Assembly (NCBI GenBank): GCA_016699535.1
Contig: CP064980.1
Coordinates: 3,296,835 to 3,360,834, forward strand
Length of the DNA stretch: 64,000 bases
Origin: Myxococcales bacterium
GTDB lineage: Bacteria > Myxococcota_A > Polyangia > Polyangiales > GCA-016699535
Direction of reading: 5' to 3'
Positions 913-64,000 of this stretch are shown here, in pieces. The stretch's first letter is position 1. Every line of letters starts with the position of its first letter. The notes beneath the pieces are model-generated. The model did not search any database and was not told the DNA's origin. It was given only the letters and a program-made list of their open reading frames with translations. The position numbers were made by a program, and so were the translations under genes.

Positions 913-1878
913 ATGAATCGACATAGAAAACGTGCTCCGTGGGTTATTGTAGCAGCTTCTGCGCTTAGCTTATCTTCTGCAGCTTGTGATGACGAGAGCC
1001 CTCGCTTCTGTGATCCCTGTCAGTCCCAGTGCGACAGCGGCACCTGCAACCCTCCGCCGCCCTACGAGGATGCGGGAAACGATGGAAATACACCAGATGG
1101 TGGCAATGGCGGCGATGGCGGCTGACGCCCAAGCACACGCTGATCTTGATCTTCAACGCGTTCAAAAGGAGTGGTCGGCACGCGTCACTGCCGAGTACCG
1201 ATCAGCCGCACTTAGCGCGCAAAGCTTGCATTGGCTCATTCAACTTGGCCTAAGCCCTGATACCATTGACCTAGGGCACCGGATTGTTCGTGATGAACTC
1301 GATCACGCGGCTGACTCGTTTGACGTGTTTCAAGCTGCTGGCGGAAAGCAACGCTCCGTGCTGGACCCGCATACGCTTCACTTTAAACAAGCCGGCAAGC
1401 AGCCCTTGCCGTTTCAGGTTTTGGATGTCGCCGCTTCGGTATTCTGCTGTGGCGAGACCGTGGCCGTGCCACTTTTCCAAGCCATGCTCAAACAAACGAC
1501 CGCAAAAGACGCTAGAGCAGCTTTAAAAAGGATTGTAAAAGATGAAGCCGTGCATAGCGCCTTTGGATGGAGCCTGCTGGACGAATTATTGGAACTTCTA
1601 AAAGATCAAGGACGAGATTTTTAAGATCACGACTTGAGGGCTATTATAGCAATCTTTCTAACGACTACTCTCACAGTCTTCTCGAAACGACAGCTTTGGA
1701 AAAGAGTTGGGGCCTACTCGACGGAGCCGAATACCGGCGCATCACTGAGGAGTGCATCGCAAAAGTGATTCGACCACGATTCGAAAACAAACTTCATCGC
1801 CGGTGGATCTCAATTCAACCGCTATCTATCGATAAAGAGACCGAGCAACTTATTGGTGCCTTAACTCACGGGCCCTGA
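913..1878 (+). pseudogene. Ferritin-like (di-iron four-helix-bundle type) protein with a lipoprotein signal, split over three frames
   Basis: ORF 913-1125 encodes a signal peptide with lipobox LSSAAC. ORF 986-1624 carries DELDH and DEAVH (ExxH-type) motifs. The homologous-looking continuation 1567-1878 is in another frame, and the break coincides with the T5 run at 1618-1622. The first junction (~1100-1125) could instead be two overlapping genes. Confidence 0.5.
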
Positions 1879-2027
1879 CATGTCGTTCTTGCACCCACTC
1901 GACCACTGCTTGAGTTCAGCAAACCCTATAAACTCAAAAATGTCCCTTGATTTTTGACGCTTTCGAATTGCCATACCCACAATATATTCTACACTAGGAG
2001 TACTAGCTCTTCGTTGCGGGATTTTTC

Positions 2028-4160
2028 ATGAGACTTACTATGCGGCTTACTTTTCTTCACTTTGTTCTAGCCTTCTTTTTGTTTGCTTGTGGTTCAAGTA
2101 ACCATGCTCTAACCGAAGACGCTGGCGTCGATGGCGAGATCGACGCTGCCGCGCTGCTCAGCGACGGCGGAAAGGAAGGCGAGACGCTACCGGATTGGGA
2201 AGAAGGCGCTTGTCGCCTCGAGCCCGCCGCTGAGCCTTTTGCAAACCCCTCGACTGAGTTGCATTGGGATGCAAGCGCATTGCCTTTTCCAGAGTTTAAG
2301 CATGCCATCATGTCTCCTGTCGTAGTTGATTTTGTACCTGAGGCCGAAGGCGATGCCATTCCCGAAATCGTTTTTATCAGTTACCAAAACTATCCTGAAA
2401 CAGGCGTTCTACGCGTGGTCAGCGGACGAAGCCCCTACACCAATCTCCTCACCTTTGCTGGCGATGGCAGCGCACCGATCGTTGCTCCAAGTACCGATAC
2501 CACAGGCAAAACACCTGCCTTGCGTTTTGACGGACATGTCGCGGCCGGTGATCTGAACGGCGACGGTTATCCTGAGATCGTAGCCACTAAACAAAACGGT
2601 GGCGTGGTGGCGTTTACCCGAAACTCCGATGGAAGTTTTTCGGAACTGTGGAGTAAAAATGGCAGCGACTGGCCGGGAGTCTCAAGCGCCACCGGGGAAA
2701 CGCAGCCCAACGGATCTCCTGCCATCGCAAACTTGGATGGAACAGGCTCCCCAGAAGTAATTATTGGACGTCTGGTACTCAACGGCAACGACGGTTCACT
2801 GCGTTGGATCGGAACAGGCGGAGCCAAAGGGATCAACAGCCAGGGCCCTTTGAGTTGCGTGGCAGATTTGGATGAAGACGGGTCCATGGAAGTCATCGCT
2901 GGAGCCACAGTGTTCGACAAAGATGGAAATATCGTGTGGCAAAACAAAGACGGGTCCAATAATCCTGAAGAAGGGTTTTGCGCTATTGCAGACGTTGTCT
3001 CAAACAGCGATGGAAGTGCTGGCCAAGACGGCTTGCCCGAAGTGATCCGCGTTTCCAAAGGAAAGGTGTATTTTCACGAGACACGCATCAATGGCAACGA
3101 AGGTAATGTTGTTTGGTCTATAGAGATTCCGAAGTGCGATACCGAAAACAACATCACTTGCACGAGCAATTGCGCAAGCAAAAACTCTGGAGGCGCGCCG
3201 ACTGTGGCTGATTTCGATGGCGACGGCAAAGCCGAGGTTGGTGTCGCTGGAGGCAGCTGCTATGTCGTGTTTGATCCAGACTGCAAAGGAGCAAATGTCG
3301 AAGGATGTGTAGAAGACGGCATTCGTTGGGTACACAGCACCGAAGACGATTCTTCCAATGTCACTTCCTCCACCGTTTTTGATTTCAACGGTGATGGCAG
3401 CGCCGAAGTTGTCTACAATGACGAACAACGCTTTTTGGTTTTCGATGGAAAAACCGGAGCCGAAGTATTTTCCGATTGGAACCCTTCAAGAACTCGCACC
3501 GAGCAACCCATCGTCGCTGACGTTGACAATGACGGCAATGCTGAAATCGTTTTTGTCAGTAATACTGAAGCAAACTTTGCTGGCGATGGAATCCCTGGAA
3601 ATGTAAGCGCAGAAGAACGCATCCCCGGCGTCGAAATCTGGTCAAGCGCTGATGATTCCTGGGTCCGTGCAAGGCCACTGTGGAACCAACACACTTACCA
3701 TATTAGTAACGTCAACGACGACATGACGATTCCAACCGAAGAGATAGCCAGTTGGAAAACGCACAACACTTATCGTCTCAACGCTGCGGTGGGAGATTCT
3801 TTGGCGGCGCCTGATTTAGGCACGGATGCTGGCGCCGTTGTGTGTGAAGACTTTACGATGAAGCTTTGCATTCAGCTCTACAATTCGGGTGACGTAGAAG
3901 TTGGCGCAGGGATTGAAGTTGAATTTCACCGCGACAGTGCCGATGGCGAATTGCTCGCAAGCACAGCAAGCTCTCGAAACATCCCCCCAGGGGAATACGG
4001 CGAAGTCGTGTGTGGCGAGTGGGATCCAGCCAGCTCTGAAGTCGGCCCCGTGGATATTGTCGCGTTAATCGATCCTGGGGCAAAAGAACGTGAATGCGTC
4101 GAAGATAACAACTCACTAAGCTTTTCTGTCATTCCCTGTAGTTTTGATTCGGTGTTCTAG
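2028..4160 (+). CDS. Secreted FG-GAP/VCBS-repeat (integrin-alpha-like beta-propeller) lipoprotein
   Basis: Signal peptide with lipobox LFACGSS. Repeated Ca-binding-type motifs: DLNGDGYPEIV, ANLDGTGSPEVI, ADLDEDGSMEVI, ADFDGDGKAEVGV, FDFNGDGSAEVVY, ADVDNDGNAEIVF. Confidence 0.8.
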   Translation: MRLTMRLTFLHFVLAFFLFACGSSNHALTEDAGVDGEIDAAALLSDGGKEGETLPDWEEGACRLEPAAEPFANPSTELHWDASALPFPEFKHAIMSPVVVDFVPEAEGDAIPEIVFISYQNYPETGVLRVVSGRSPYTNLLTFAGDGSAPIVAPSTDTTGKTPALRFDGHVAAGDLNGDGYPEIVATKQNGGVVAFTRNSDGSFSELWSKNGSDWPGVSSATGETQPNGSPAIANLDGTGSPEVIIGRLVLNGNDGSLRWIGTGGAKGINSQGPLSCVADLDEDGSMEVIAGATVFDKDGNIVWQNKDGSNNPEEGFCAIADVVSNSDGSAGQDGLPEVIRVSKGKVYFHETRINGNEGNVVWSIEIPKCDTENNITCTSNCASKNSGGAPTVADFDGDGKAEVGVAGGSCYVVFDPDCKGANVEGCVEDGIRWVHSTEDDSSNVTSSTVFDFNGDGSAEVVYNDEQRFLVFDGKTGAEVFSDWNPSRTRTEQPIVADVDNDGNAEIVFVSNTEANFAGDGIPGNVSAEERIPGVEIWSSADDSWVRARPLWNQHTYHISNVNDDMTIPTEEIASWKTHNTYRLNAAVGDSLAAPDLGTDAGAVVCEDFTMKLCIQLYNSGDVEVGAGIEVEFHRDSADGELLASTASSRNIPPGEYGEVVCGEWDPASSEVGPVDIVALIDPGAKERECVEDNNSLSFSVIPCSFDSVF

Positions 4161-4230
4161 CCGAAACGATCAACTACTGTTATAATTTCTTCCGATAATT
4201 CATGAGTGCACAGTGCTTTAGGAGGTATCT

Positions 4231-6633: not shown

Positions 6634-6646
6634 AGGGGTCATTCAC

Positions 6647-6766: not shown

Positions 6767-7800
6767 TTAGAGTTGCGCCGGAAGGTCGACTTCGATGCCC
6801 CAGGCCCGACAAGTGGAGCCCGACGGATCCATCCTCGAGCAGGCCTCCAGCCAAAACTCATAGGGGAAAAGTTCCAACGCAAAAAAAGCTACACAGGAAG
6901 TACGTTCAATAAAAACACGAAACCCCCTCAGAGCGGCAATCGCCAGCGCGCTCACGCCCAGAATAGGAGTGAGCAAATCCCAATCAATGACAATCCAATA
7001 GTGCCCGGGCCAGCCTACGGCGAAACCGTTGTCCGGCAATTCATCGATGCCGCTGCGATCGATTGACTCAAGACCGTTATCGGTCCCCGTGCCATACACC
7101 TCATCTGTATTTGGAAGACTATTTGAGTCCCTAACTTCCAAGCCATCAAGACCCGAACTTGCTAACTGATAACTGGCGTCGCTCGATGATACAACGACCG
7201 TTGCCTTGCCGGGCTCAGTTTCCATCACAGGCGATCCTGGAGGACAGGGGCCGCAGATATGTACGTCAAGAAAATCGTGCCAGACTTTCCCGTCCGCTCG
7301 ATCGGGTGCCACCATTTGCGCAAATGACACAGAACTCTCTGCGCCACTATAGAGACTTTCTTTTGTCCTCAGCCACGTTTCATACTGACGTGTCATATCA
7401 AAGTTTGTCCCTATCTCAAACTCTGCGTAGATGCACATCGTGCCATAGCAACCGGTGAACTGATGCATCGCACCAGGGCTGTTGTTGTTGCTATGAGCGT
7501 CAACAAACTCCCCCTAACGATCCCGCCGCGGCTGATATCATAGTATGATTTTTCACAGGCAAGCATAAGTTCACGCTGCGCTAGTTCATCAGAAGCCAAG
7601 GCGGGATTGTTCTCGGCACAGTTGCTTATGACTTGTGTGCACGCTTGCTATGTATCACGCCTGCTATTTATTTATGCAGACGCTTCACTTGACACTGTAT
7701 CGTCGCTTGCAACGGAACACCCTGTTGTGATCAGGATAACTCCCACTACGAGTTGCTTGTATGGATGTAGGCTTAGGTCAGAGATTGGGTTTCCTTGTAT
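6767..7800 (-). pseudogene. Hypothetical lipoprotein with a C-terminal hydrophobic anchor, disrupted
   Basis: Reverse-strand reading shows a lipoprotein-type leader (VVGVILITTGCS) that ends in a stop. A second frame follows (ORF 7411-7599), then a third (ORF 6767-7468). The 7599-to-7468 frame switch coincides with the C5/G5 run at 7510-7514. No ATG start was found for the leader. Confidence 0.4.
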
Positions 7801-8061
7801 AAATGCTTGCTAGTATCCTTGCAAATTTCAGGCCGAATAAATCTGTGAACTTCAAAAATGATTTCATTGCGATTTAGCTCATAGGGGCCATCAAACCCTA
7901 TCTTGAAGAACTCCAGACCGTGATCTTGGAGCGCTGTGATTTCAAATCGCTACAAAACGACTAGTGGTTAAAATTGGCATCCCTTTGAAGCGAGCGCTGA
8001 AACACCTGCTGACTGCAAAAGCAGTTGATAGGGTTGAAGCGTAAGCAAACGACCTGGAGCC

Positions 8062-13285: not shown

Positions 13286-13446
13286 AATTAACGAGTCTAT
13301 TGATTACTTGAGACTTGTCCAGAAAGCGAAGATTCGCGAAAACCAAGGGATATCCGCCATTGTTAGTGCCCTCGGAATACTGTAATTACTATCCTCCTGT
13401 CGTGCTTTACAGTAGCCGACAAACATTACTCGCGACTGTTTTAAAA

Positions 13447-14045
13447 ATGAAACAAATAGACGAAATTTAGATTTTTGGTTTGGGCCCATCGAGTTTGACC
13501 AAATACCCATTCAAGAGAAAAAAGAGCGGTGGTACAAGAAAGATCCTCAATTTGATCAAACGCTAAAAGAGCGCTGGTTCGATGCTCTGCAAGCCGCCAA
13601 ACGAGACGCTTTAGACGACTGGGCGACCAGTCCTCGCGGAAGTCTTGCTCTGATTATTCTTATCGATCAATTCGGGCGTAATATTTTTCGAAATACCGCA
13701 GCGAGTTTTGAAGGTGATAAAAAAGCACTAGCGATTGCCAAGCAAGCGCTAGACCGACATTTTGATCGGGAACTTCCTTGGGCTATGCGAGTTTTTCTGT
13801 ATATGCCCTTCATGCATTCCGAGGATTTAGTCGATCAAGAGCATTGTGTGGAATTGTTTAAAAGCCTTAAACACAACGCTCCGGAGCATTTTAAGAAAGC
13901 TTTTGACCAGAACATCGACTATGCTATCAAGCACAAGGATATCATCAAGCGCTTTGACCGTTTTCCTCATCGCAATGCCATCCTTGGACGCAAGAGCACG
14001 CCTGAGGAATCCGCATTTTTAGAGCAACCAGGTTCATCGTTTTAA
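13447..14045 (+). CDS. DUF924 family protein, apparent 1-nt frameshift near the 5' end
   Basis: The frame that ends at 14045 is open from 13416 and reads LDFWFGP...WYKKDPQFD...SLALIILIDQFGRNIFR...FPHRNAILGR. The only ATG (13447, MKQIDEI) is in another frame and stops at 13468-13470. Adding one T to the T-run at 13466-13468 would join them. Confidence 0.7.
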
Positions 14046-19244: not shown

Positions 19245-20060
19245 CTATTTTCCCCAATCTTTAATCAGCGCCACTGCATGCTCCGGATTCTCCCAATGCA
19301 GCCGCGAGCAGTGTTGCACATCAATAAGCTGGCCGATATCGCACTTGGGTCGTATAAATGCATGCTCATGAATCACAGCTAACATCTCAAGCGGCTTCAT
19401 CGGACTAAGCTTTGTATGTTTTGATTGCTCTATCACAACCCAATGAACTTGAGTTGGAAGCACAGGCATTGTCGCCACTTCGCAATCCAACAAAGGATAA
19501 ATAGGTGAAGTGGCCAGCTGTCCGTGAACATCTTTCATCCGGCGATCCACAAAGCGATTCGAGTTGAACAGTGCCGGCCTTTTTGACGGTTCATCCACTC
19601 GTAAATCAAATTGGATACTGCGGGGCAAACCCCACAGAGAATGCCCATCACTCCAGATAAACTCGTCACTCAGGTAGCGAAAGCCTGCCTGCACAGACAG
19701 CAGACTTAAAGTCGACTTACCTGCGCCGCTTGGCCCCATCAGAACCACCGCGTTCTTCGATCGAACTACCGAAGCAGCATGCAGTAACATCAAGTCCTTA
19801 CTCGAGGAAGCCAATTGCAAATAAACCAGTGCTTCGAGCCTAGCTGTCAAATCATCGGCTACCTCAACACGTTCAACATCCTCGCCGTCTTGCTGAATGA
19901 CAAAAGCATGATTTTTTTCCGACACGACAAACTCGGTAGAATAGACGGGCGGAAGAACAGAGTGTTTGCACTGCCCCCATAACAACTCAAGCTGCCCAAG
20001 CAAAAAAGCTGGTCCCGCGATTCTGACTTCAAGGCAAGAGAAGAAAAAGCAAACCCTCAT
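19245..20060 (-). CDS. HPr-kinase-like (HprK-related) P-loop kinase
   Basis: LHAASVV...VVLMGPSGAGKSTLSLL...YLSDE is the pattern of the HprK C-terminal kinase fold. There is a 4-bp ATGA overlap with the upstream PqqD gene. Confidence 0.7.
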   Translation of the reverse strand: MRVCFFFSCLEVRIAGPAFLLGQLELLWGQCKHSVLPPVYSTEFVVSEKNHAFVIQQDGEDVERVEVADDLTARLEALVYLQLASSSKDLMLLHAASVVRSKNAVVLMGPSGAGKSTLSLLSVQAGFRYLSDEFIWSDGHSLWGLPRSIQFDLRVDEPSKRPALFNSNRFVDRRMKDVHGQLATSPIYPLLDCEVATMPVLPTQVHWVVIEQSKHTKLSPMKPLEMLAVIHEHAFIRPKCDIGQLIDVQHCSRLHWENPEHAVALIKDWGK

Positions 20061-20317
20061 AAAAATTCAACAAGATGCTTTGCTTGCAGTTCACGAACAA
20101 AGCTTTCAACGTCTTGTTTAACACGATCATTCGGCACCGGAAGGGTCTGAACAATGCTTTCACAAATCGCATCAACGCTTCGATTGCCATCGATGAGATA
20201 CCATACGGCCGCTCCAACATTGTTGAGGAGCAAAACACAATTATTCTGCTCGTCGACAAGAGCAAGCTCTTCATCATTCATCTGGTGAGTGGTAATCGTT
20301 TTACGTTTTGGAACCAT
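20057..20317 (-). CDS. PqqD-family peptide chaperone (RRE-type) protein
   Basis: The 86-aa sequence LLLNNVGAAVWYLIDGNRSVDAICESI...DVESFVRELQAKHLV fits the PqqD family pattern. Confidence 0.75.
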   Translation of the reverse strand: MVPKRKTITTHQMNDEELALVDEQNNCVLLLNNVGAAVWYLIDGNRSVDAICESIVQTLPVPNDRVKQDVESFVRELQAKHLVEFL

Positions 20318-20322
20318 CGTGT

Positions 20323-21638
20323 TTATTGCACCACCGCATCAAGCATAGTGGCTCTTAGCCTACAAGCCCAGCAAGTTAACGACTCAGCATGCTTGCTGAG
20401 TTGTTCTGGCAAGGTATCAAGGTCAAGCCGAACATCCTTCGGCTGGGTTAATATGTCAGACAACCGCTTTTGATAAACATTACCCAAGGGAGAATTGCGT
20501 GAAAAAATACAAGGATACACCGTGCCATCCGGTCCTATCGCCGCGCTCCCAGAAAAGCGTGGAGCATCATCGCTTGAGCCACCGCTCTGTTTGTGAATGC
20601 CGCCAGCAGCAAGAAGTACTTCTCCACTCTTGGATTTACGAAGCGAAACCCCGCGACCCACATCACTAACGGTATCGTAGCCACTGACTCAGGAGCAATA
20701 CCAATTTTTTCAAGAAGCTCGCGCACCTTGGGATAGTGATCGAAGTTTTCTTGCATCAACACCACACCAGCACGCGCACGTTTGCCATCTGCGAGTACCC
20801 GTTTAATGGCCTCAATAGTACGCCGCTGGCTACCTGGCGTTCGCGTAATGCGGTCGTGCACATCCGGGTCGTGGGAATAAAAAGAAAAGGCAAAGGAAAG
20901 CGAATAGCTACGAATTTGATTGTAGAGAGCGTCTCCTAAAGCAAGACCATTGGTATAGATTTCAACATGCTCGAATTTGAGGCGATCGCATTCTTCAACG
21001 GCATCAAGAAAATGAGAGCTTATCAGCGGGTCCCCGCCGGTAAGCTGCACGGATTCAAAGCCGAGCGTTTTGGCATCTTTTAGAAGTGCTCGAATGGACT
21101 CAAGGCTGAGTTCTTCGTCGCACTGCGGACTTGACTCCGCATAGCAATGAACACACTGCTCATTGCAGCGTTTGGTCAACTCAACAAAAAGTTGCCGATA
21201 ACCAAAGCCTCGCAAAGCCGAAGCTCGCGTCAGTGGCAGTAGCGGTGATTTTGAAAGTGCCTGAAAAAATTGAGCGCTTAGAGCTCCACCCTGCCCGGCA
21301 AAGTGTAAAAGCGACGGAGAAACCGAGCCCGCTAGCACCGACTCACGCCATTGCCCCTCGAGCTCGAAGAGCTTTTTCCCTCCCATGTCTAAAACCGCAA
21401 GACTTCGTTCCGTATCCACAACGAGCCAATGCGGCGCGAGCATGTAGCTCGCCGAGCCGTGCGGTTCGGTGGCTCGACTGCTTTGCTGAGCGCGTTCTAT
21501 GGAAGTCTGCACAAGTATTTTTACCCTTAAAAACAGCCTTCTGGAATAGTCCAAGACCATCCTTTTAAGGAACTGCGATGGCCTTGACGTCTTGACTTCA
21601 GGGGGCGAAACTCGCTTGCAGTATCGTGTTCGCCTCAC
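20323..21638 (-). pseudogene. Radical SAM enzyme with a SPASM/twitch-like C-terminal domain, split by a frame break
   Basis: ORF 20535-21638 has LTKRCNEQCVHCY (CxxxCxxC) and QLTGGDPL. ORF 20323-20661 has VGRG...IGPDGTVYPCIF...GNV...CWAC, typical of the auxiliary-cluster domain. The frames switch at about 20688-20693, which is not a homopolymer. The true start is uncertain (GTG 21638, or a later ATG). Confidence 0.7.
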
Positions 21639-30516: not shown

Positions 30517-30518
30517 GG

Positions 30519-40818: not shown

Positions 40819-40877
40819 TTTTAGTCGGGCGACTACCGGTGAAGCTGATTATTGGGTATAGGGACGGCATTCGCCCC

Positions 40878-41237
40878 ATGCAAACAGAAATCGAAAAAAC
40901 CTTTGGTTTTGAAGCAGCTCACCGTTTGCCGGAGGTCGGCGAGCATCACAAATGCTTCAATCTTCACGGCCACAGCTTTCGCGTCACCCTTCGCGTTCGG
41001 GGTCCCGTAGATCCGAGGAAGGGCTGGATTGTTGATTTCGCAGAGCTGCGTTCGGCCTGGCAGCCTCTTATGGATATCTTGGATCATCACTATCTGAACG
41101 ACATCGAAGGATTGGAAAATCCAACCAGCGAAGTCCTCGCAGCGTGGATTGCTGAGCACATCACCATTAAGGGCGCCAAACTTCATTCGGTGACAATCCA
41201 TGAGACCTGCACCTCGGCAGCAACGGTATACCTTTAA
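40878..41237 (+). CDS. queD: 6-carboxy-5,6,7,8-tetrahydropterin synthase (PTPS/QueD family)
   Basis: FGFEAAHRLP...HGHSF...LDHHYLND motifs. The ATG at 40878 is preferred to the GTG at 40839. Confidence 0.85.
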   Translation: MQTEIEKTFGFEAAHRLPEVGEHHKCFNLHGHSFRVTLRVRGPVDPRKGWIVDFAELRSAWQPLMDILDHHYLNDIEGLENPTSEVLAAWIAEHITIKGAKLHSVTIHETCTSAATVYL

Positions 41238-43836: not shown

Positions 43837-45678
43837 ATGTCAATCGTAAAACAAGATGACGAATTGATTCGAAGCGACATCGAAGGCTATCTCGCATCGT
43901 ATCAAAACAAAGAGCTCTTACGTTTTGTTGCAGTGGGCTCTGTGGACGATGGCAAATCGACCCTCATTGGACGCCTTCTTCACGACACGGGAATGGTCTA
44001 CGAAGACCAATTGCAATCGGTACGCAAGGCCACGGCCATAGAAGGCGAAGATATCGACTTCTCACTCTTTACAGATGGGCTACGTGCTGAGCGCGAACAG
44101 GGCATTACCATCGATGTCGCCTACCGCTATTTTTCAACAGCAGTACGTAAATTTATCATCGCCGACACACCAGGGCACGTTCAGTACACGCGTAACATGG
44201 TTACAGGCGCATCCACCGCGCATGTCGCACTCATTCTTATTGATGCGCGTTTGGGCGTGCTGCAGCAATCCAGAAGACATGCCTATATCGCATCCCTGTT
44301 AGGGATTCCAAATCTCGCTGTTTGTATAAACAAAATGGATCTTGTTGGTTACGATCAGCACGTTTTCGAACGCATCAAGAAAAACTTTTCTGCTTTTTCT
44401 GACAGCCTAGCTTTCAAGGAAGTAAGCTTTTTCCCCATTAGCGCACTTAAGGGCAGCAACATTGTGTCCGCTTCTCCGCACACCGCTTGGTACACCGGAC
44501 CCACAGTGCTTGGCTATCTTGAAACCGTAGCGCTTGCAGAAGATCAAAACCCTGACGATTTTCGCTTTCCAGTGCAGACTGTGATTCGGCCACATCTTGA
44601 TTACCGCGGCTTTGCTGGGAAAATTGTTTCTGGCTCTATCAGCCGGGGCGATGAAATTATCACGCTTCCGTCGGGCAAGCGAAGTCACGTAAGTTCCATC
44701 GACACCTTTGATGGCGAACTCGAACAAGCTTGTGCAAACCAATCCGTCACCATCCGTTTGGATGACGAGATTGATATCAGCCGAGGCGACATGCTGGTTA
44801 AAGCAAACAGTCTACCTTCTGTTGGGCGAAGCGTTGATGCAAGCCTTGTCTGGATGAACGAAAAAGAGCTTGATTCAGAAAAGAGTTACATTTTAAAGCA
44901 CACTACCCAAAGTGTACGCGTTCAAATCGATAAAGTTCATTGGAAAAAAGACATGGACACCTTAAAAGAGGTGGAGGCTTCAACCCTTGGTCTCAATGAC
45001 ATCGGCAAGGTGAGTTTATCGTGTCATCGCGCTATTTACTTCGATGCCTATACAAAAAACCGAAACACCGGTGCCTTTATTCTCATCGACTCACTGAGCA
45101 ACGACACAGTGGCAGCGGGAATGATTGGGCCCAGTACGACCAAACAAGAATTCGATGAGGCCCTTCGCGAACTTCGCGCAGGCTCGGCACTAAAGCCAAA
45201 AAGCCAAATCAGCCGCGCAGAACGAATGCACCGCTTGGGGCAACATGGCGCTGTCGTATGGCTCACCGGCCTTCCAGGTTCAGGACGCTGGACCCTCGCC
45301 TACGCCCTTGAGCGCCGCCTTTTTGACTTGGGATGCACGGCTACGGTCATCGATCCGACGCAAGAAACCTTGTCGTCCATGATTTCATCTGCCAAAGCCG
45401 TTACACACGCGGGTCTTATCGCTATCTGTGCTTTTCCAAGTTACAAGCACGACGATCGCGAAGCTGTTCGCTCACGCATAGGCGATCAACGCTTTGTGCA
45501 AGTCTACGTGAACACTTCACTTGAGCTCTGTAAAGAGCGACGACCTGGTGCTGATTTTTCCGGCTTTGAAGAGCCCGCGAACCCTGAAGTCACCGTAGCC
45601 CTTGATCACACGCGTATCGAACAAGCCGTCGATTTCATTATCAGTGCACTGAAAAAACAAGGCCGTATCACCATCTAG
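43837..45678 (+). CDS. cysN: Sulfate adenylyltransferase subunit 1 (GTPase) fused to an APS-kinase-like domain with a degenerate P-loop
   Basis: GTPase motifs GSVDDGKST, DTPGH and NKMD. The C-terminal domain is homologous to CysC, but its P-loop reads GLPGSGRWT where GLSGSGKST is expected. No DGDN-like block was seen. Confidence 0.85.
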   Translation: MSIVKQDDELIRSDIEGYLASYQNKELLRFVAVGSVDDGKSTLIGRLLHDTGMVYEDQLQSVRKATAIEGEDIDFSLFTDGLRAEREQGITIDVAYRYFSTAVRKFIIADTPGHVQYTRNMVTGASTAHVALILIDARLGVLQQSRRHAYIASLLGIPNLAVCINKMDLVGYDQHVFERIKKNFSAFSDSLAFKEVSFFPISALKGSNIVSASPHTAWYTGPTVLGYLETVALAEDQNPDDFRFPVQTVIRPHLDYRGFAGKIVSGSISRGDEIITLPSGKRSHVSSIDTFDGELEQACANQSVTIRLDDEIDISRGDMLVKANSLPSVGRSVDASLVWMNEKELDSEKSYILKHTTQSVRVQIDKVHWKKDMDTLKEVEASTLGLNDIGKVSLSCHRAIYFDAYTKNRNTGAFILIDSLSNDTVAAGMIGPSTTKQEFDEALRELRAGSALKPKSQISRAERMHRLGQHGAVVWLTGLPGSGRWTLAYALERRLFDLGCTATVIDPTQETLSSMISSAKAVTHAGLIAICAFPSYKHDDREAVRSRIGDQRFVQVYVNTSLELCKERRPGADFSGFEEPANPEVTVALDHTRIEQAVDFIISALKKQGRITI

Positions 45679-50118: not shown

Positions 50119-51129
50119 TCACGGTATGGGCGAAGGTATCACGGGCAGTCCGAACAAGGCACCCCCGCCAGAAAATCCTACAACCCCATCCGAGTTAAAC
50201 ACCGGCAGGGCTGCTGCTGAAGCCCGAAAGGTTTCCAAAGGCTGCGCGGTAGCAGAGCTAGCTTCTGTCATCATGGTTACGGGTTGCGCGCCGGTGATGC
50301 CAAAGCCCACGTTGATCAAGAGAACGGCTCTATTCCCAGGAATCCCATCGGCTCCCACAACCACGGCGCCGGGCGTTGAACACGCAATAGCAACAAAGGC
50401 TCCTGAGGGTACGCCTTCAGCCACTTGAGCGACGGCCGGGTTGAACATAGCCTGTCGCGCGAGCATTGCCACGTTGCCGTACCATAGTTGAGTCACAAGC
50501 TCCGAAGTAAACAGCGCGCCATTGACTTGAGTAATAATCCCGTGGAGCGCCAAAATGGTGGCTTTGCATTGATCGATACGAGGTTTTTCAAGCTCTAGAT
50601 CAATATCCGCGCTGGTATGGATGGACAAGCTTTGCTTGAGGTCAAGCGGAGTAAGGTAGTCCTCCACATCGTAGTCTCCGTATCCTCCCTGACCTGGCAT
50701 ACTGGTTTGACCTAGTCGTGCATCATCGAGACTTATTTCGGACGTTGCCATTATAGCTTGCAGGCTATCGGTGACATAATTCCAGAACTCTTGCAGGACG
50801 ACTAAGGGAGCATGACGCAAAGCCTGATCAATAGCATACAGCTGTTTGATCGTGGTCCAATTCTCTGCTGCAAGGCCACTGTCAACATATCGGTCTAGGC
50901 CATATAGCAGCAATCCAGCCCCGACAACCACACCGACCACTGGCCAGCCAAAAGTAAAGCCGACCGCTGCCGTTAGACTAATGGCTTCAGCCGAAGCATC
51001 TTCCGCTGCAAGATCAGCTTCTTCATTGTGCGCGCTGCAATTGGACAATAGTAAGCCAAGGCAAAGAAACAATACAATGCCTGTACAGGTATGACGTTGT
51101 TGGAAATAAGGATTCATCATGATAGTCAT
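50119..51129 (-). CDS. Hypothetical lipoprotein
   Basis: An internal start (M at 51129 or 51120) gives a signal with lipobox LLSNCS. No domain recognised. Confidence 0.5.
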   Translation of the reverse strand: MTIMMNPYFQQRHTCTGIVLFLCLGLLLSNCSAHNEEADLAAEDASAEAISLTAAVGFTFGWPVVGVVVGAGLLLYGLDRYVDSGLAAENWTTIKQLYAIDQALRHAPLVVLQEFWNYVTDSLQAIMATSEISLDDARLGQTSMPGQGGYGDYDVEDYLTPLDLKQSLSIHTSADIDLELEKPRIDQCKATILALHGIITQVNGALFTSELVTQLWYGNVAMLARQAMFNPAVAQVAEGVPSGAFVAIACSTPGAVVVGADGIPGNRAVLLINVGFGITGAQPVTMMTEASSATAQPLETFRASAAALPVFNSDGVVGFSGGGALFGLPVIPSPIP

Positions 51130-51292
51130 TTTAATAAGCAATTTCTGTGCCATGTTCTTGGATAACAATACAATCTTTTCGAACGGATATTGAGATAAAG
51201 ACAGGCTTCTATCTAAGAGAAAAGCTGATCTGCTCGGGGTGTGGAATCCAAGGAGTGGATACAAAAAGCCTCAGTTCACTACAGGCCGATGC

Positions 51293-53571: not shown

Positions 53572-54120
53572 TTGAACTACTTATGTCAATTGGCAAAGGC
53601 CGTTATTTTGGAGTTGATAGGCAGAGGAGCTGACCATGTTTTCAAAAAACTATTACCTTTGGTTTTTCTTATCCTTGGGTCTGACAGCAATTGTCAAAAT
53701 AGTGCAAACGACGATGCTTCAGAAGCAGAGCTTAGTTCAGGCGATGAGGCATCGGAAGCTAACGCAGATACCGAAGTCACTGCATCTGGGCAGAACGATC
53801 CGGGTTTAATCGATCCGCGTGCCAATGCGATCGAGCAAGAGCTTAGCTCTTTGACAAAAGCGAATTGGAAAAAGCTTCTGAAATCTGGTGAGCGCCGCTA
53901 CGATCGTGCATGCGGTTCATGCCACCCTGGTGGTCAAGACGACCTCGGACCAAGTTTGATTGGCATTCGTTGGTCGATTTCGGATATGTATCGGCAAATT
54001 CGCAAAGGCTCAGGGAAAATGCAGCCGATTTCGGAAAAGCGACTGCCCGAAAAGGACATGGCGGCCGTGATGGTCTATCTGTCGACCCTCAACATCGTCA
54101 AAGACCTTTCAGCTCCCTAA
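53572..54120 (+). CDS. Mono-haem c-type cytochrome (start uncertain, possible frameshift at an A6 run)
   Basis: CGSCH haem site and a distal GKMQP Met. The best start (ATG 53636, with AGAGGAG 7 nt upstream) is one frame off. One extra A in the run at 53644-53649 would give MFSKKLLPLVFLILGS... Confidence 0.7.
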   Translation: MNYLCQLAKAVILELIGRGADHVFKKLLPLVFLILGSDSNCQNSANDDASEAELSSGDEASEANADTEVTASGQNDPGLIDPRANAIEQELSSLTKANWKKLLKSGERRYDRACGSCHPGGQDDLGPSLIGIRWSISDMYRQIRKGSGKMQPISEKRLPEKDMAAVMVYLSTLNIVKDLSAP

Positions 54121-54180: not shown

Positions 54181-56352
54181 GTGGGGCATCCGGTATCTGG
54201 CTCAAATTCATTCCGTTTGAACTGCCATAGTCGAGCGGACGCTGGCGTCGCGCGAGCTCGTTTGAAAACGGACGCTAGCGTCGCGCGAGCTCGCAAAAAA
54301 ACGGGCGCGAAGAGCAAGCGAACTACTTTGCAAACACGTCCGGCCGAACCATCGAGCAAACAGCCAAGGTGCCGTCTATTTGTGCCACAGTTATTCTTCT
54401 TTTGTGCTGGAATCACTCTGTTTAGTGCTTGCGCCTCGGTTCCCAAGGGACGGTATGGAATCACCAATTTTGAGCTTAGTGGTGTACAGCAGATGGATGC
54501 TAAATCCCTGCAAGCCTGTTTAGCTACGCAAGAACGTTCCTCTTTTTCATTTAATTTGGGAGCGGTTCCCGAACCCGAATGCAATGTTCCGCCCTTCGAC
54601 ACAGATCGCGTCACCTTGTCGTTGTGGCGCTGGCCTTGGACCGACTGGCCTGTCTTTGAACGGACAATTTTTGAGCGTGACCTGGAGCGCATTGTGCGTT
54701 GGTACCGAGCACGTGGTTTTTACAGAGCCCGCATCTTGAATAGCGAAGTTCTTCCCAACTCAGCGTTGGACTCTGACCGAACACTGCTCATGGAAGGGCA
54801 AAAGCTACGCCTAGGTGAAGAGGAAAGTGAAAAACACGCTACGGTAAAAGTCCAAGTATACGAAGGCGAACCGGTTATTGTTCGATCCTTGGAGCTTAAC
54901 GAAGATACCGAATTGGAGATTGATCTTCGCCGCAGATTACACAAGCAAATAGGCCGTATGATCGGGCAGCGCTTTGATGAAGCAGAGTACGACTTGAACA
55001 AAAAACATTGCTTCGAATCCTACAAGACGCTTCCTATGCCCATGCTGAAATTGAGGGCAGCGTTAAAATCGATACGCGCAAATTAACGGCTACCGTTAAG
55101 GTAGTTATCTACCCTGGCCCAGCATGTCGTTTTGGAAAGGTTGATGTGGTTGTAGACGACCGCTACGACCTTCCAAAATCAACTATTTTGGGCGCTGCGA
55201 AAATTCATAAACGTTCAGCCTTTAGCCTCACTGCGCTCGAAGAAGCACGACGAGAAGTCTACGCACTCGGTGCTTTTTCATCTGTTGAAATCGAGCCTGA
55301 GCTGAACGAAAAAAATGCAATTATCGATGTCCATATCCACGTCACGCCCGGACGGTTGTTTCGATACGGTCTAGGTGTTGGAATGCTTTCCGGAATTGCC
55401 CAACTTAGCAGTGTTCAAGAGCAGCAAGATGTTTTGCAGTGGGACCTGCACGTGTTGGGCTTTGTCGAGTTTCGAAATCTTCTTGGTGGCTTACGTAGAC
55501 TACGCATCGAAGAGCGTCCGCGTTTGATTTTTACGAGAAACTTTCCACAGGCATCCGATGGAGACCCCGTCTTGGGTAACTTGGTCACCGTCGAATTCCA
55601 GCAACCTGGCTTCGTTGAAACACGCACTACTTTGACGTCGGGTGCACGCTGGGATTTTGGACCGCAGCCCTATGGCGAGGACTATTCTCGTCACAATCTG
55701 GATGCATGGGTCGGGCCACAACGCTATTTTGCAAAAGGGCACCTTTTTGCTTCGACTCGAATTCACGGCAACGTTTTCTTTCCGACACATATCGGGGCCA
55801 GTGTCGAGGATCCCCCGAAAAAGTATGAAGTGCTTTTCTTTGAACAATACGCCCGGCTCGACCTTCGCGACCGGCCACGACAACCCCATAAGGGCTCATT
55901 CTTCGCACTCGGGCTTCATGAAGCCATCCCGCCCGGATCATGGACCTACTTGCGATTTACGCCTGATGCGCGTGTCTATTTGCCATTGCCGTTAGGCTTT
56001 ACTCTTGCTGGACGTTTTGCGATGGGCATCATGGAGATTCTCGAGAGCTCGTTTAATCCGGCGACAGATCCCCGTCTTGCCACGCTCGGTCCAGGTGTTT
56101 GCAGATGCAGGAGATGTCTCGCAATCCAAGCAATTTCGTTTTGACCATCCTCAAACAACTTTAGGACTTGGATTTCGCTACCACACCATTATCGGCCCCA
56201 TTCGTTTTGATGCAGGTTGGCGAGTTCCTGGCGCACAGGTTATCGGAAAGGATGAACGCGATCCAGAACGAGCAGGGAAACCGTCCGATGCAAGCCTACT
56301 CTTTTTTGGTTTTCCAGGCGCGCTGCACCTAACGATAGGAGAATCGTTTTGA
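54181..56352 (+). pseudogene. tamA: TamA/Omp85-family outer-membrane protein (POTRA domains plus beta-barrel), split into three frames
   Basis: POTRA hallmarks VRWYRARGFYRARI and VYEGEPVIVRSLEL. C-terminal barrel VQVFADAGDV...GLGFRY...IRFD. The frame switches are at the A6 run 55000-55005 and at about 56085-56100. The likely start is TTG 54328, with an LFSACAS signal. Confidence 0.7.
54236..54301. repeat. Tandem 33-bp duplication CGGACGCT(G/A)GCGTCGCGCGAGCTCG...AAAA
   Basis: The copies are at 54236-54268 and 54269-54301. Each contains the GACGC/GCGTC and CGAGCTCG dyads. They lie just upstream of the likely TamA-like start (TTG 54328). Confidence 0.8.
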
Positions 56353-59300
56353 AAGCACGACGGGCAGGCATGCGCGCTCTTATCGCGTCTCTTATCGCTG
56401 CACGTGTTACGATTGCAACCTTTTTTATCGTGCTCGTTTCAGTAAGCGTAAGCGCCTGGTACCATATTCAGCTTCCTCAAGGTCGTCACTTGGTTGCAAA
56501 TTTGGTTCATGATCTTGTCAACGGAGAAATCAAAGGTCAGCTCCAGATTTCAGAAATCGTTTCGATCAGCCCAACAAAGGTCGTGACCAAAAACGTATAT
56601 CTTTACGATGCCGAAGGACGTCGAGTTGCTTTCGGAAAAACGGTTACCATCACACCAGATTTTCGAGCAGCATTCCGAGGCACACTTCGTTTCGCTCACG
56701 CGCGCCTCAATGGAGGACGCGTCAACCTCTACCCATCCGAGAGTGGATTGCCTACCTTAATCACTGCCTTTGAAGCGCGAGACCCTACGCCAGGAATAGG
56801 ACCACCCATCCACGCTGTTGTTGACGACATACAAATTGAAAAGGTTGCAGTGCGAGGTGAGGTTCTTGGACTCAAGGGCCTGTTGGCTAAAGACTTCAAA
56901 GCAAACTGGCGTCTTGAGTTCAATCGAAAAATTCAGGTCACCGTTTTCAGTGCGCAGGGCCAATTGCTCGAACCCTTTCCTTTCAAGCTCGCACTTCAAG
57001 ATTTACGAGGACTGATTGAAACCGATTTAGCGAGAGGGATTAGTTTGGCTGCACGTCTCAAGAATGGAACGGAGCACTATACTGTCGCGTTACGCTATTT
57101 TAAAGATCCTAAGAAAGCAGATGAGCCCACGCTTGATGTACACGTTAACACAGCAAGCGTGTCGGCTCGAACAATTCAGGGACTGGGTTTTGAATGGGCG
57201 AAGATCCTTAATTTTAACGCGGCAGGGATTTTCGTCTTTTGGCCCGCCTGACAAACTTCAAATGGAAGCAAAAGCCACCACCGAAGGAGGCATTGTAAAC
57301 ATTGAAGGCTCCCTTGCTTCAGGACAAAACGCCGTCGTGACCTTCAAGACATCACAACTTAGGCTTAGCAAAGTTCTTGCTGAAGCACCTGACATAGCCG
57401 TCTCGGGTTCCGCAACCGTCACCGCAAGCCAGCCGCACCCAAAGCTTGATATTGATGTCCAAGCTTTTGAATACAAAGGAATCACTTTCCCCGCTTTCAC
57501 TATGCAGGGACGAATTCTTGCGAATCGAATACAAATCGATGCAATGCTTTCTAGGCATCTTGCTGGATCCATCAAAGGTCAAGGAGATGCGTTTTTCAAT
57601 GGACGTATCCGGCTCGAGTTGGAAGCTAACCTCAAGAACATTGGACGTGATCCCAACGTACCATCCGAGATTCAAGCAGATGCAAAAGCAAAGGTTGCAA
57701 TCGATACCCTGGGTTCGTCATCAAGTAGCCTTGAAGTAAGGGGCTCGATTGCACTTTCCGCAGTCCACTACAGAAGCATTAAAGCAGAGACACTGGTATT
57801 TGATGGCCTGTATCGTGGTGCACTAAGACAGCCTTATGTAAAAACACGACTCTCAGGCAAAGGTGTTCGCGTCGGGAACTACGTCCTTGGGGATACGGAG
57901 TTAACCATCGCTGGAGGCCCTTACACCTATGCTGTCGAAGGACGTGCAGGCACACCTGAGCAACGCAGAGCAGAGTTCGCTGCCACGATTCAAGCCAGCA
58001 CGGACGGCTATCTCCTGCACGCCAAGCAGGTAGTTGTTTCAGCTGCCGGCGGTACATGGCGTGGCTTTGTTGAGGGTCTTACCTTTCATCCCGGACAAGA
58101 CCTAGTAGTCGAACGCATCGTTCTGGCGAACGGTACCCAACGCCTGCAAGTCAGTGGGCAATACCGCTTTGATGGCACCGAAGAGATTGAAGCACAATGC
58201 AGGATTTTGATATCGCAGGCCTACGTGCCATCTTGGCAACAGGTGTCGAACCTTTTGCCGGTCGAGCGGACTTGCATCTAAGTCTTCGAGGACATCTGAG
58301 TTCACCTGAACTGTTGATCGAAGGCGCATTACGTGAAGGTAACTTCCTTTCCTTGGAGCCCGTCACTGCTGTTTATGTGTTGAACTATAGCGATGGTGTA
58401 CTCGAATTCGATGCCCAAGCAGAAATCGAAGAACGTGCTGTTTTATCAATCAATGGCAGCAGCCATCTTCAACTCGATGTCGAACACCCGATTGAGGCTA
58501 TTCGTCAGGGACAACATCACTTTTTGGCAAGCATCGACAATCTTTCGCTTGATGTCATTTCGCGTGCGACCAAGAAGCCACTTGAGAATCTTTCCGCTTC
58601 GGTTTTTGGAGATCTCGAGTTCAATGGTTTTTTTCACGAGTTTAGTCTCGACGGAACCTTACGTTTGTCGGAGTTCGTCTTTCGTGATTCGTCACCTGTC
58701 GATATCCAAACGCGTTTTAATTTCGGAGGCCAAACGCTGCTTCTTTCGCTAAGCACCTTACATGAGCAGCGTAAGCTTTTTGATGCAGAAGGAGCTTTTC
58801 AGCTACCACCGAACACCATCCCTGAGGCAAGCTCTGCGTTTGCAGCAAAGGTACTTGACCAGCCGTGGCAACTCTCCTTTGCCTTTCCACCGCGTCGCCT
58901 CGACAGGCTCCCTTCTCCCCTTTCTGAGTATCTAAATTTCCCGGCTGTGATTCAAGGAAAGGCTAATTTTTCAGGGGGTCAACAGACGACCACCGGATCG
59001 GTCGACCTTAGCACCACTTGGTTCGGATCATCGAAGGCAGGTGGTCTTTCAAAATCACGTCCACGCATGCGGATTCGTGGCGATACAAACAACGACCAAA
59101 CACATCTTAGTTTCGACGGTTTTGTCGGCACCGATCGAACCTTTAAAGCCGAAGCCTCTGCGAAAACTCCTTTGCATCAATGGATTCGTGCAGAACTGCC
59201 TTTCAGCATTCCGGGAACACGTTTTAGTGGGCATCTATGGCGCATGCCCATGGAAGATATCCCTCTTATGCCAAACTACATTAAGGGCCCCGCTGACATC

Positions 59301-60928
59301 GCTTGGAATGCAAAAGCTTTGTTCACCGAAAAACCGTCCTGGACGATTGAACTTAGGTCTTCAGCGCTTCGCTTTTTTGAAACAAGCCCTATCGTACTCA
59401 CCCTTGAAGCAAAAACCACTCCGGAAGGGGTATCCGTCGAAGCCACCACAGAAGACCTTTTCAAAGGTAAAGGTACTGTTACAGGACACCTGCCGCTCAA
59501 GTGGCTAGCCCAGCCACCCTTTGCAAGCTTTGATTCTGACGCTCCTTTTTCATTGCATGCAAAATTCAAAAAGGCACGCCTGCAACCGATTCTCACCTCG
59601 ATTCCCAGTGTAACGAACGCCGATGCGATAGCGACCGGACAAGTCGATTTAGCGGGTTCGATAAATGATATTCGTATTACGGGAAGTATGGATGTCTCCA
59701 ATGGCTATCTGCAGCTAGTCGGACTCGGTCAGCAGCTACAAAACATTCAAGGACAAATTATTTTCAGAGAGAAATGGGCAGAACTAAAAAACATACGAGC
59801 TACGGACGGCCAAGGGAGTTCACGTATCTTGGGTGGTATCGGTTTCGAAGGTCTTCGTCCTACAAAAATCAAACTTAGTCTAAATTCGTCACGCTTTCCG
59901 GTTCGACGAGAAGGAGCAGTTTTAGCTCGCCTTACTGGTTCAGCCAATATGACAGCCACAACGACACCGGAACGTCTGGATGCAGCCATGGTCGTACACA
60001 ACTTATCGGTAGCCTTACCCGATGAAAACAACTCGGGGGTTCAGGAGTTGAGTCCCCACCCCGACCTTACAGTAGACGGCGGAAAGACTGCTACTGAAGA
60101 AGGGGATTCAACACCCTTCATCGTCCATATGCAATCGATGCGTCGCAACCCTTTTGGGTGCGACGTTCGGATTTTTCCGCGCAGGTCGCTTCAAAACTTG
60201 ATGTGACGTACAAAGATCCCTACTTGTATATTGAAGGCTATGCCGATCTACGAAGAGGTTTTTTCGACCTGTTTGGAAAGCGCTTTGAGCTCTCTAGAGG
60301 AACCATGAATTTTGATGGCTCAAGCGAACTCAACCCGGAATTGAATCTTCAAGCCACACACGAAGTTGCATCATCCGGTGGAACTCTTGTCACGATTTCA
60401 GTCGGCGGTCGGCTACGTGCTCCAAAAGTTGATTTTACCTCCAATCACCCAGACTGCCGGGAACAAAGCCAAGTCATCGATTTGTTGATTAGTGGTCGCT
60501 GCGCTTCGGGTCAGAACCAAAGTGGTTTTGGCGTTGCCGCTGCTGAGCAGCAAGCAGCATCCTTTTTGGCAGGTCTGACCGCCGGTATTCTTACCTTGGG
60601 TGCACGACGAGAATTTGGAGAATTGGTGCCGGTCATCTCAATCGAGACGGGACAAAGTGGCTTCAGTAGCACAAGGGCTCGACTCGGTTTTCAAGCAGAC
60701 ACAATTATCCCACCATTTATGAAGTCTGTAGTTCGCGGGGCGTACATTGAAGGGGCTTTTCCTCTGTCCTCCGCACAAGACAGCCCTCAAATACAGCAAC
60801 AGCAACTTCAGCAACAGGGTGCAGGTACACGCTTTTTGTTAGAACTTCAGTTTCCTTATGACTTTGTGGGCACCACCCGCTACTGGCCGCCCAGCACTTT
60901 CGGGTTGGATCTTACTTGGGAGCCCTAG
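56349..60928 (+). pseudogene. tamB: TamB-like translocation and assembly module protein (DUF490 C-terminus), split into four frames
   Basis: N-terminal membrane anchor and a long beta-rich body. The C-terminal block GYADLRRGFFDLFGKRFELSRGTMNFDG...NPELNLQA is typical of DUF490. The frame switches are at about 57215-57225, 58195-58205 and 60128-60133. Confidence 0.7.
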
Positions 60929-62373: not shown

Positions 62374-62398
62374 TTAATACTGCAAAAAGCGAGCTCGT

Positions 62399-64000
62399 CT
62401 AGACTTCCGTTGTGGTGTGACAGCTTTGAGCCGCTTCATGAACCCTAAAGAACAGGTTTTCCTCACCGATTAACTCAGCCAAGCCTGAACGCTCCATGAC
62501 ATCACGCACGGGACCTTTAACTGAAGCCATTTTCAAACAAATACCACGTCTCTTGTAGTCGCACACGAGTTCGCGAAGCGCAGCTTCCGCCGAAGAATCA
62601 AGATAGTTGATACCACTGGCATCGAGCACAACAAAGTGTAACTTCTCCTTCAGGTCTCGCTCCAAAACCCGTAACGTTTCTCGCAAGAAACTCACATTTC
62701 CGAAATAGAACTGAGCGTCAATGCGCAGCAACAGTACACCTTCGCAGCGTTGAGCCTCCGAATACCGTAAAACATTTCTATAGATTTCCGTCCCAGGCAG
62801 ACGACCCAACAAAGCGTAGTGTGGACGAGTGGTGCGAAACACAAAAGTAATGAGAGAGGCTCCAACGCCAATAAGCAAACCGTTTTGAACGCCAAAGCTC
62901 CAAGTCGAAACAAAGGCAAGGCCCAACAAAAACAGGTCTTTCCGATCAAAACGGCGAAGACGTCGCAGTTCTCCAATTTCCAGCAAACCAAGGACAGAAA
63001 CAAAGATAACCGCGGCAATAACAGAAACAGGCAATAGTCTCACCCAAGGCGTAAGCCAAAGCAAAACCATAATAACAATTGTAGCCGCAAACCAGTTGTG
63101 TCTTGCGCTTATTGCCGAGGCACGAGCGGCTACGGCTGAACGAGAAAAACTTCCCGAAACGGGGTAACACCCTGAGAAACTTCCGGCAAAGTTGGCACAG
63201 CCCAAGGCAAAAAATTCCCGGTTTGGATAGGGCTCCTCCGCAGCACTACGCGCCAAGCCTTTGCCGATTGAAATGGCTTCAACAAAACCAATAAACGCGA
63301 TGCTCGTTGCAGCTGTAGTCACGGAAAAGAGCAAAGAAAAATCCCAAACCGGAACTTTGAACGTCGGCAAACCTGTTGGTATGGGCCCGACATTGTTCAC
63401 TCCAAGTTGATCGGTATGAACAATGGCTGCCAGACAAATTCCCAGCAAAGTCACGAGCAACACAGCTGGAAATTTGGGCCAGAACACTTTGCATACCCAG
63501 AGAATAGCAATCGTGCCCAGCGCTATCGTGAAAGTCGCTAAATGTGTTTTTTCCACCTGTTCGATCAGAAAGACAAAGGCACTAAAGTTGTCGCTTCCTT
63601 TGGGAAGCTGCACCCCAAGAAGCAATGGCACTTGTTTTAGCGCGATAATTAAAGCAGCCGCACTCGTAAAGCCTCGTAGGACCGGCCGGGAAAGGAATTG
63701 GCCAAAAATCCGCCATGCAATAAACCGAGGCAAAGTTGAACCATGCCCACAACGGCGCAAAACATCGGAGCAATCGCCAAAGCGGATACGCCATGTTTGT
63801 GACTCAACAGCGATAAAGATGCTCCTACTAAAAGAGAATCCAGAGCGACGGGACCGACAGAAAGATAACGACTACTACCAAGCAGGCCATAAACCACAGG
63901 TGGAAGCAACGCCGAATACAAACCGACTTCCGGTGGAAGTCCTGCAAGCAACGCGTAAGCAACAGACTGAGGCACAAGGAGAGCCGAGACACTCAGACCT
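62399..64000 (-). CDS. SulP-family anion transporter with a C-terminal STAS domain (5' end beyond the window; one apparent frameshift)
   Basis: The ORF 63649-63975 frame (extended by eye to the window edge at 64000) has PQSVAYALLAGLPP...LGSSR. ORF 62399-63760 has FLSRPVLRGFTSAAAL and a STAS tail (VVLDASGINYLDSSA). The frames join at about 63696-63698 (AATT(T)CC). Confidence 0.8.

Follow-up and report, generated by a model that had tools for sequence, protein, structure and literature searches.

In the 64,000-nucleotide stretch of the Myxococcota assembly GCA_016699535.1 analyzed here (hereafter the window), several protein-coding genes are divided between two or more reading frames, among them the adjacent genes for TamA and TamB. 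A sequence-only reading of this stretch had counted about 14 reading-frame breaks. Homology and profile evidence verifies 11 of these, whereas the breaks in a ferritin-like gene and in an orphan open reading frame (ORF) are without homologue support. The explanation favored here, with a probability of roughly 55%, is that the scattered single-base breaks are mostly insertion or deletion (indel) errors of the assembly consensus, while the TamA-TamB operon (TamAB) is probably a recent and genuine pseudogene operon.

According to this explanation, long reads almost certainly underlie the assembly, as suggested by its contiguity, and the missing bases that are scattered at one per gene would be residual consensus indel errors, each of which can make one gene appear as two overlapping ORFs. 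Consensus error of this kind most likely accounts for the background, which amounts to about one single-base break per 6-9 kb of coding sequence. The TamA-TamB operon, on the other hand, was probably inactivated recently, with TamA losing about 146 nucleotides (nt) that encode the loop-6 RGF segment together with neighboring barrel sequence. With selection on the pair lifted, further lesions would have begun to build up, reaching about four times the single-base count predicted from composition. Indels that split gene calls are a known residual error of Nanopore-based metagenome-assembled genomes (MAGs) unless these are well polished (PMC9262707).

Verified lesions and intact orthologues

The window has a G+C content (GC) of about 50% and, after merging of split genes, contains 53 genes at a coding density of 94.5%, a value that applies to the window only. 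Its source is a single-contig MAG of 4,018,971 bp from an uncultured member of the Myxococcota, labeled "MAG: Myxococcales bacterium," and exact look-ups identify the window's GlmM as QQR89646.1 and its CysN as QQR89629.1. The closest genomes in the GTDB species set are MAGs of Polyangiales and Sandaracinaceae, with a GlmM identity of only about 67%. Among 15 billion proteins, no sequence at least 90% identical to GlmM or CysN was found beyond the window's own, each of the two 90% clusters consisting of one member, and neither these clusters nor an exact-protein look-up yielded an independent assembly of the same species. Since GlmM and CysN are without a second sequence at this level, short-read coverage is presumably small as well. 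The tRNA and Rfam scans found no RNA gene in the window that might have served as a probe for sequence error.

Two syntenic relatives were identified through a TamB search, referred to as L081 (GCA_020633325.1) and L082 (GCA_964640175.1). Both share the gene order cysN-folB-ruvX-yceG-cytb-rieske-cytc-tamA-tamB-glmM with every one of these genes intact, and a miaB call between yceG and cytb is present in L082 only. Their GC is 0.51 and 0.57, compared with about 0.50 in the window. The sequence-only reading had suggested comparing the broken genes with orthologues; in the relatives, the copies are intact and occupy a single frame, and the breaks are not shared.

Three types of evidence were used to locate breaks: stop-to-stop ORFs together with a codon-usage frame profile, the coordinates of Pfam and NCBIfam profile matches, and tblastn of intact homologues against the window. 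A lesion was considered verified when a homologue or profile carries on from one frame into another. The 11 verified lesions are distributed over eight genes, with one each in the DUF924, radical SAM-SPASM, enoyl-CoA hydratase (crotonase), ATP-grasp-like, cytochrome c, and SulP genes, two in TamA, and three in TamB. Their position, size, and sign are observed directly. Ten of them involve a single nucleotide, with deletions outnumbering insertions by nine to one, and the eleventh is the 146-nt deletion in TamA. At each verified single-base site, the flanking residues align to those of orthologues without loss, and not one nonsense codon is present in the 12.3 kb of broken genes. A further three or four lesions are unverified; they lie in the ferritin-like gene and in the orphan ORF, for neither of which a homologue was found.

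Many particulars of the sequence-only reading hold. Its coordinates for the breaks are correct within about 10-20 nt, and its estimate that roughly half of the breaks lie in homopolymers agrees with the 6 of 13 single-base sites found in runs of at least 4 nt. Breaks outside homopolymers are also confirmed, as five verified single-base lesions are in 2-nt runs (including CC 20681-20682, A2 58195-58197, and A2 60133-60135). The long genes that it named as intact, such as ppc, the helicase, cysN/C, cytochrome b, miaB, and glmM, are unbroken and have full profile coverage, and all five of its breaks in TamAB are among those verified.

In the public record, the gene pieces are annotated as separate proteins, and the equal steps in locus tags and accessions from 39.7 to 56.3 kb mean that this interval has no annotated pseudogene. 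Pieces of TamB (at least three), one of TamA, and pieces of the radical SAM and ATP-grasp-like genes are listed separately, which is a point of data quality. Fragments of this type spread through protein databases as short "hypothetical proteins," and caution is needed when metabolism or pseudogenes are inferred from this genome.

The TamA and TamB lesions

The TamA gene (54181-56352, + strand) encodes POTRA repeats and an Omp85 barrel, as recognized by Pfam, but is spread over three frames. It is 60% identical to the intact 704-amino-acid (aa) TamA of L081 and L082, and in the annotation its middle piece appears as a protein of 378 aa (P0145). The first lesion is one base missing from the A6 run at 55000-55005 (+ strand), where the joined protein is seamless (...EYDLNKK continuing into TLLRILQDASYAHA...). 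The second is located at 56094-56097 (+ strand). A frame break had been placed at about 56090 and is real, but tblastn of the orthologues identifies it as the junction of an internal deletion of about 146 nt and not as a frameshift indel. The window carries four nucleotides, GGTG, where the orthologues carry 50 codons (DSYRLRGGGPNSVRGF...ELRVPLTPDFETVA). Window TamA accordingly reads ...LATLGP-GGTG-FADAGDV..., and in each of the two orthologues LGP is separated from F(V/A)D(A/M)GDV by 50 residues.

The deleted segment is kept in all 40 of the 40 full-length homologues aligned and includes the Omp85 loop-6 RGF, the motif that is best conserved across the Omp85 family. Since the loss removes about 146 nt of an invariant Omp85 segment, it is not attributable to a homopolymer miscall, and it is the only lesion in the window with real biological weight. 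The frame returns after the two lesions because the base missing from the A6 run and the 146 missing nucleotides sum to -147; the predicted TamA product cannot be functional either way. The GGTG microhomology at the deletion ends would fit replication slippage.

The TamB gene (56349-60928, + strand) is divided over four frames, which join into a protein of about 1520 aa. Intact TamB proteins of 1499-1521 aa (P0003-P0005) align collinearly with 98-100% of this protein's length, at 47-51% identity, and its pieces are annotated as QQR89642, QQR89644, and QQR89645. All three lesions lie on the + strand. The first, at 57228-57240, shifts the frame by +1, through either one extra base or the loss of two, where the sequence contains two T4 runs. 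At 58195-58197, one base is missing in GCACAATG (A2 run), and the join is seamless (...EEIEA.MQDFDIAGL...). The same applies to the third lesion at 60133-60135, where one base is missing in CAATC (A2 run) and the protein passes from ...FIVHMQ into IDASQPFWVRRSDF... without loss.

When the divergence of TamA and TamB from their orthologues is expressed relative to that between L081 and L082, the resulting values are 0.79 and 0.78, respectively, which fall within the range of 0.64-0.95 for the intact neighbors. TamA and TamB are not evolving faster than the genes around them, and this is compatible only with a very recent inactivation. Independent lesions of mixed type within one gene or operon occur in TamAB only, which combines the 146-nt deletion with four single-base lesions, and each of the other verified genes has a single lesion. 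If reads confirm the TamA deletion, then the organism manages without a TAM module that its relatives have retained; this would be a modest and ordinary observation.

Consensus error, gene decay, and the alternatives

The frequency of breaks per run increases from 0.06% in 2-nt runs to 3.4% in 6-nt runs. Against a general background of 5-10 substitutions per indel, two to four nonsense codons would be expected if the lesions were real, and the probability of finding none is between 0.12 and 0.013. No transposase or other mobile-element domain is found among the Pfam matches of the window ORFs. Together with the coding density of 94.5% and the absence of acceleration in TamA and TamB, the window displays no signature of genome decay. 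The broken genes also sit singly inside otherwise intact operons, as with the crotonase gene, which belongs to an acyl-ligase/reductase cluster of 10 genes, and the cytochrome c gene, which lies beside those for cytochrome b and the Rieske protein.

The breaks had been described as strongly clumped, which is overstated for the window overall. The distribution of 14 lesions over 10 distinct genes has P = 0.15, and the six lesions within the 6.5 kb from cytochrome c to TamB have a scan P = 0.065, or 0.015 when only verified lesions are counted. For the absence of lesions from the named housekeeping genes, P = 0.013-0.034, with a set picked after the fact. Because these genes were named for being intact, and because the per-gene distribution is not significantly non-random, the contrast between housekeeping and accessory genes is post hoc. 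TamAB was tested with the TamA deletion taken as an independent reason to single out the operon, and four single-base lesions are present where 0.8-1.1 would be expected from run content (P = 0.008-0.024). Clumping is therefore real for TamAB only, and the base composition of this region shows nothing unusual.

The sequence-only reading had leaned toward relaxed selection in a host-associated or genome-reducing lineage. This is supported for TamAB, with its 146-nt deletion and roughly fourfold number of single-base lesions. It is not supported for the other breaks, which amount to one missing base per gene, without nonsense codons, in a densely coding stretch whose relatives have the same genes intact.

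Several points weigh against the division into consensus errors and a decaying TamAB. None of the 21 coding runs of at least 7 nt is broken, and the five verified single-base lesions in 2-nt runs are not in the classic long-homopolymer context. Real slippage mutations share both the run-length dependence and the bias toward deletion, so that these properties discriminate only weakly between error and mutation. Which lesions exist in cells and which in the assembly only is inferred, and the sequencing platform is taken from the contiguity of the assembly and not from a record. In addition, the TamAB excess could mark a poorly polished or strain-heterogeneous region in place of relaxed selection; the cytochrome c gene next to it likewise carries a lesion.

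If this last point is taken further, everything would be an artefact, including the TamA deletion. The interval of 53.6-60.1 kb would then be badly assembled or polished as a result of low coverage or mixed strains, and the genes would be intact in the organism. This alternative survives best, though it is still an unlikely one. It accommodates the six lesions in 6.5 kb over three adjacent genes (cytochrome c, TamA, and TamB), the otherwise good conservation of TamA and TamB without stops or acceleration, and the origin of the sequence as a metagenome consensus. However, a clean loss of 146 nt between unique sequences is atypical of consensus error, the TamA flanks align perfectly to the orthologues up to the junction, and the base composition of the region gives no reason to expect trouble.

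It is less probable again that all lesions are real and reflect early gene loss under relaxed selection or in a mutator, with about 10 of the 53 genes inactivated very recently and through little other than single-base deletions. Base-calling hardly explains the TamA deletion and the TamAB excess, and several lesions lie outside long homopolymers. Compared with other myxobacteria, the genome is also small, at 4.0 Mb or more, and low in GC, at about 50%. Nevertheless, real pseudogene sets normally combine frameshifts with nonsense mutations, truncations, and insertions, whereas the genes in question have one lesion each outside TamAB, no nonsense codons, and no protein-level acceleration. They belong to otherwise intact operons in a window with 94.5% coding density and no mobile-element domain among its Pfam matches, and the relatives at GC 0.51 and 0.57 have intact genes. 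Correspondingly, it is doubtful, to a somewhat greater degree, that the source is a Polyangia-like member of the Myxococcota of at least 4 Mb and about 50% GC at the very onset of gene loss, in which around a fifth of the genes have been inactivated over a short period by a mutator-like spectrum of almost nothing but single-base deletions and the TAM module has been the first pathway to decay further. Finally, programmed frameshifts or phase-variable homopolymer switches are scarcely credible even though two breaks are in A6 tracts and two are within the first seven codons (cytochrome c and DUF924), given that the orthologues are single-frame throughout, the tracts do not exceed 6 nt, many sites are 2-nt runs, and the sites share no motif.

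Other broken genes, their neighbors, and known systems

The remaining verified lesions each affect a single gene. In the DUF924 gene (13447-14045, + strand), a 1-nt deletion in AAATTT (A3/T3) at 13463-13468 lies seven codons past the ATG at 13447. This ATG is out of frame with the complete domain, whose own frame is without a start codon; positions 2-180 of the Pfam DUF924 profile match residues 18-206 of the open frame 13416-14042 with 226 bits. The cytochrome c gene (53636-54120, + strand) is similar in that one base is missing in the A6 run at 53644-53649, four codons past the ATG at 53636. That ATG is preceded by an AGGAG Shine-Dalgarno sequence, the product matches Pfam Cytochrome_CBB3, and the orthologues in L081 and L082 are intact lipoproteins of 171 and 181 aa. 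The restored signal peptide (53636-53700) ends in ...LILGSDSNC, which by look has no canonical lipobox, and the orthologues have ...TSCGG and ...SSCGG. Either simple divergence or another small lesion may account for this difference.

In the radical SAM-SPASM gene (20326-21638, - strand), one base is missing at CC 20681-20682. Eight homologues of 378-405 aa pass from frame -3 to frame -2 at 20682, with matches that are gapless, non-overlapping, and collinear to the stop. The Pfam Radical_SAM and SPASM matches fall in different frames, and the public record holds a 325-aa radical SAM fragment (P0025). Extra frameshifts were considered for the SPASM domain, where the Cys motifs looked displaced, but these were ruled out, as the homologues share the degenerate motifs and are collinear to the stop. 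The degenerate Cys pattern (...FSGSAAIGPDGTVYPCIF...LTCWACR...) is common to the whole homologue family and is not particular to the window copy. The surrounding 19245-21638 (- strand) combines an HprK-related kinase A (TIGR04352, a weak match), a PqqD-like protein, and the radical SAM-SPASM protein, an arrangement that resembles a peptide-modification cassette.

The crotonase gene (29708-30516, - strand) is missing one base in the A4 runs at 30083-30091. Positions 4-122 of the ECH_1 profile are matched in 30034-30606 (- strand) and positions 118-243 in 29711-30193 (- strand), in separate frames, and with one base added the protein reads ...SSRFVFPELRLGLVPGFGG... This is the only split gene in a co-oriented operon of 11 kb (26247-37090, - strand) that also encodes a TetR regulator, a DAG-kinase-like protein, two AMP-dependent ligases, an ACP, a pyruvyl-transferase-like protein, a HAD hydrolase, and two NAD_binding_4 "male sterility" reductases, one of which has a Sterile domain. 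The operon may represent a fatty alcohol or lipid-modification pathway.

For the ATP-grasp-like gene (39729-40567, + strand), one base appears to be missing at about GG 40203-40204, a placement with weak support. Stop-free stretches at 39720-40292 and 40190-40564 are in different frames and overlap by about 100 nt, and the joined protein has a weak NCBIfam PurT match (positions 133-266, E = 0.0046) that extends across the junction. In the public record, QQR89624.1 corresponds to the N-terminal piece. At 40545-40706, a unit of about 49 nt is directly repeated in three copies, 71-86% identical and spaced by 51 and 62 nt, which extend over the 3' end of the ATP-grasp-like ORF and occupy the gap before a PTPS/QueD-like gene (40839-41237). 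A further pair of 25-nt repeats lies at 40712 and 40798, and Rfam contains no match for the repeats at 40545-40706. In the SulP transporter gene, which extends from 62399 past the window end at 64000 (- strand), one base is missing at AATT 63696-63699. Positions 21-123 of the TIGR00815 profile are matched in 63652-63999 (- strand) and positions 123-565 in 62402-63871 (- strand), and the protein reads ...GGFLANFLSRPVLRGFTSAAA... with one base added.

Of the two unverified loci, the ferritin-like gene (913-1878, + strand) is spread over three frames, with the codon-usage frame profile switching from 0 to 1 and back to 0. The first frame (913-1125) contains a lipoprotein signal and linker, the second (953-1624) the core, and the third (1567-1878) the C-terminal part. 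The second junction is at the T5 run 1618-1622, where one added T restores the frame, and the first is an ill-defined +1 shift within 1050-1122, in a Gly-rich linker without a homopolymer. Codon usage is the only support for both junctions. No relatives of the core were found in JGI metagenome scans, and searches of PDB, NCBIfam, and Pfam at lenient thresholds returned only faint ferritin-like matches, namely Ferritin_2, DUF455, and EncC. A second ferritin-like gene, encoding an intact DUF455 protein (38965-39750), is directly upstream of the split ATP-grasp-like gene.

The gene model of the orphan ORF (6767-7674, - strand) is unverified. The ORF runs over 6767-7468 from its ATG, and a possible extension upstream would need the C5 run at 7510-7514 to be longer by one base. 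Neither a family match nor a relative was found in Pfam, NCBIfam, or JGI metagenome scans. The single in-frame stop that had been reported near 7690 is in fact two stops, TAA 7672-7674 and TAG 7648-7650, in a stretch of negative coding potential. Upstream of the ORF, a lipobox-like peptide (...VVGVILITTGC) is present at 7650-7900 (- strand), in a stretch of negative coding potential that contains two stops and lacks an in-frame start. This stretch may be an old gene remnant, the sole candidate for one in the window, or no gene at all.

Further observations concern the comparison with the relatives. Synteny with L081 and L082 is interrupted between miaB and cytb by a hypothetical gene of 381 aa without a family match (50119-51264), and again 3' of glmM, where the window has the opposite-strand SulP gene (62399-64000) and L081 and L082 have ybbR-cdaA-folP-ftsH. 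The CysN-CysC fusion (43837-45678) matches the APS-kinase profile only weakly, and its P-loop, GLPGSGRWT, looks degenerate by eye. CysN of both relatives likewise gives only weak APS_kinase matches, and, judging from these sequences, the kinase domain may be non-catalytic in this clade.

Nothing in the window suggests a new kind of biological system, and the finding is an ordinary one. Homopolymer tracts can act as contingency loci, and transcriptional slippage at poly(A) can rescue frameshifted genes. Like such loci, the window has lesions in A-tracts, one of which is at the 5' end of a gene for an envelope protein (cytochrome c), but its tracts are only 6 nt long and are not conserved, and most of its sites are not tracts. 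A comparison may also be made with the recent pseudogenes of host-restricted or reducing bacteria, of which Pajaroellobacter abortibovis, a reduced myxobacterium with a genome of 1.82 Mb, is an example (PMC5295582). P. abortibovis is not itself the source of the window, which lacks the gap-closing primer sequences of that genome and whose proteins belong to the 4.02-Mb MAG. The several lesions in TamA and TamB, the deletion of an essential motif, and the intact orthologues are shared with these, whereas a coding density of 94.5% and the absence of nonsense codons, of faster protein evolution, and of mobile-element domains among the Pfam matches are not.

The indels of Nanopore-based, hybrid-polished MAGs, as in the problem addressed by IDEEL-type analyses, are alike in being mostly single-base deletions that depend on homopolymer length and split ORFs in single contigs of several Mb (PMC9262707). 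The window differs in that nearly half of its sites are in 2-3-nt runs, its platform is inferred, and the 146-nt TamA deletion is of another kind. As for the TAM module itself, the window departs from known TAM systems in that its TamA is without the conserved loop-6 RGF segment and both tamA and tamB are out of frame. In other respects it is a recognizable TAM, with POTRA and Omp85 domains in TamA, a PF04357 (DUF490) domain in TamB, and adjacent, co-oriented genes within the order cytb-rieske-cytc-tamA-tamB-glmM that the window has in common with its two relatives.

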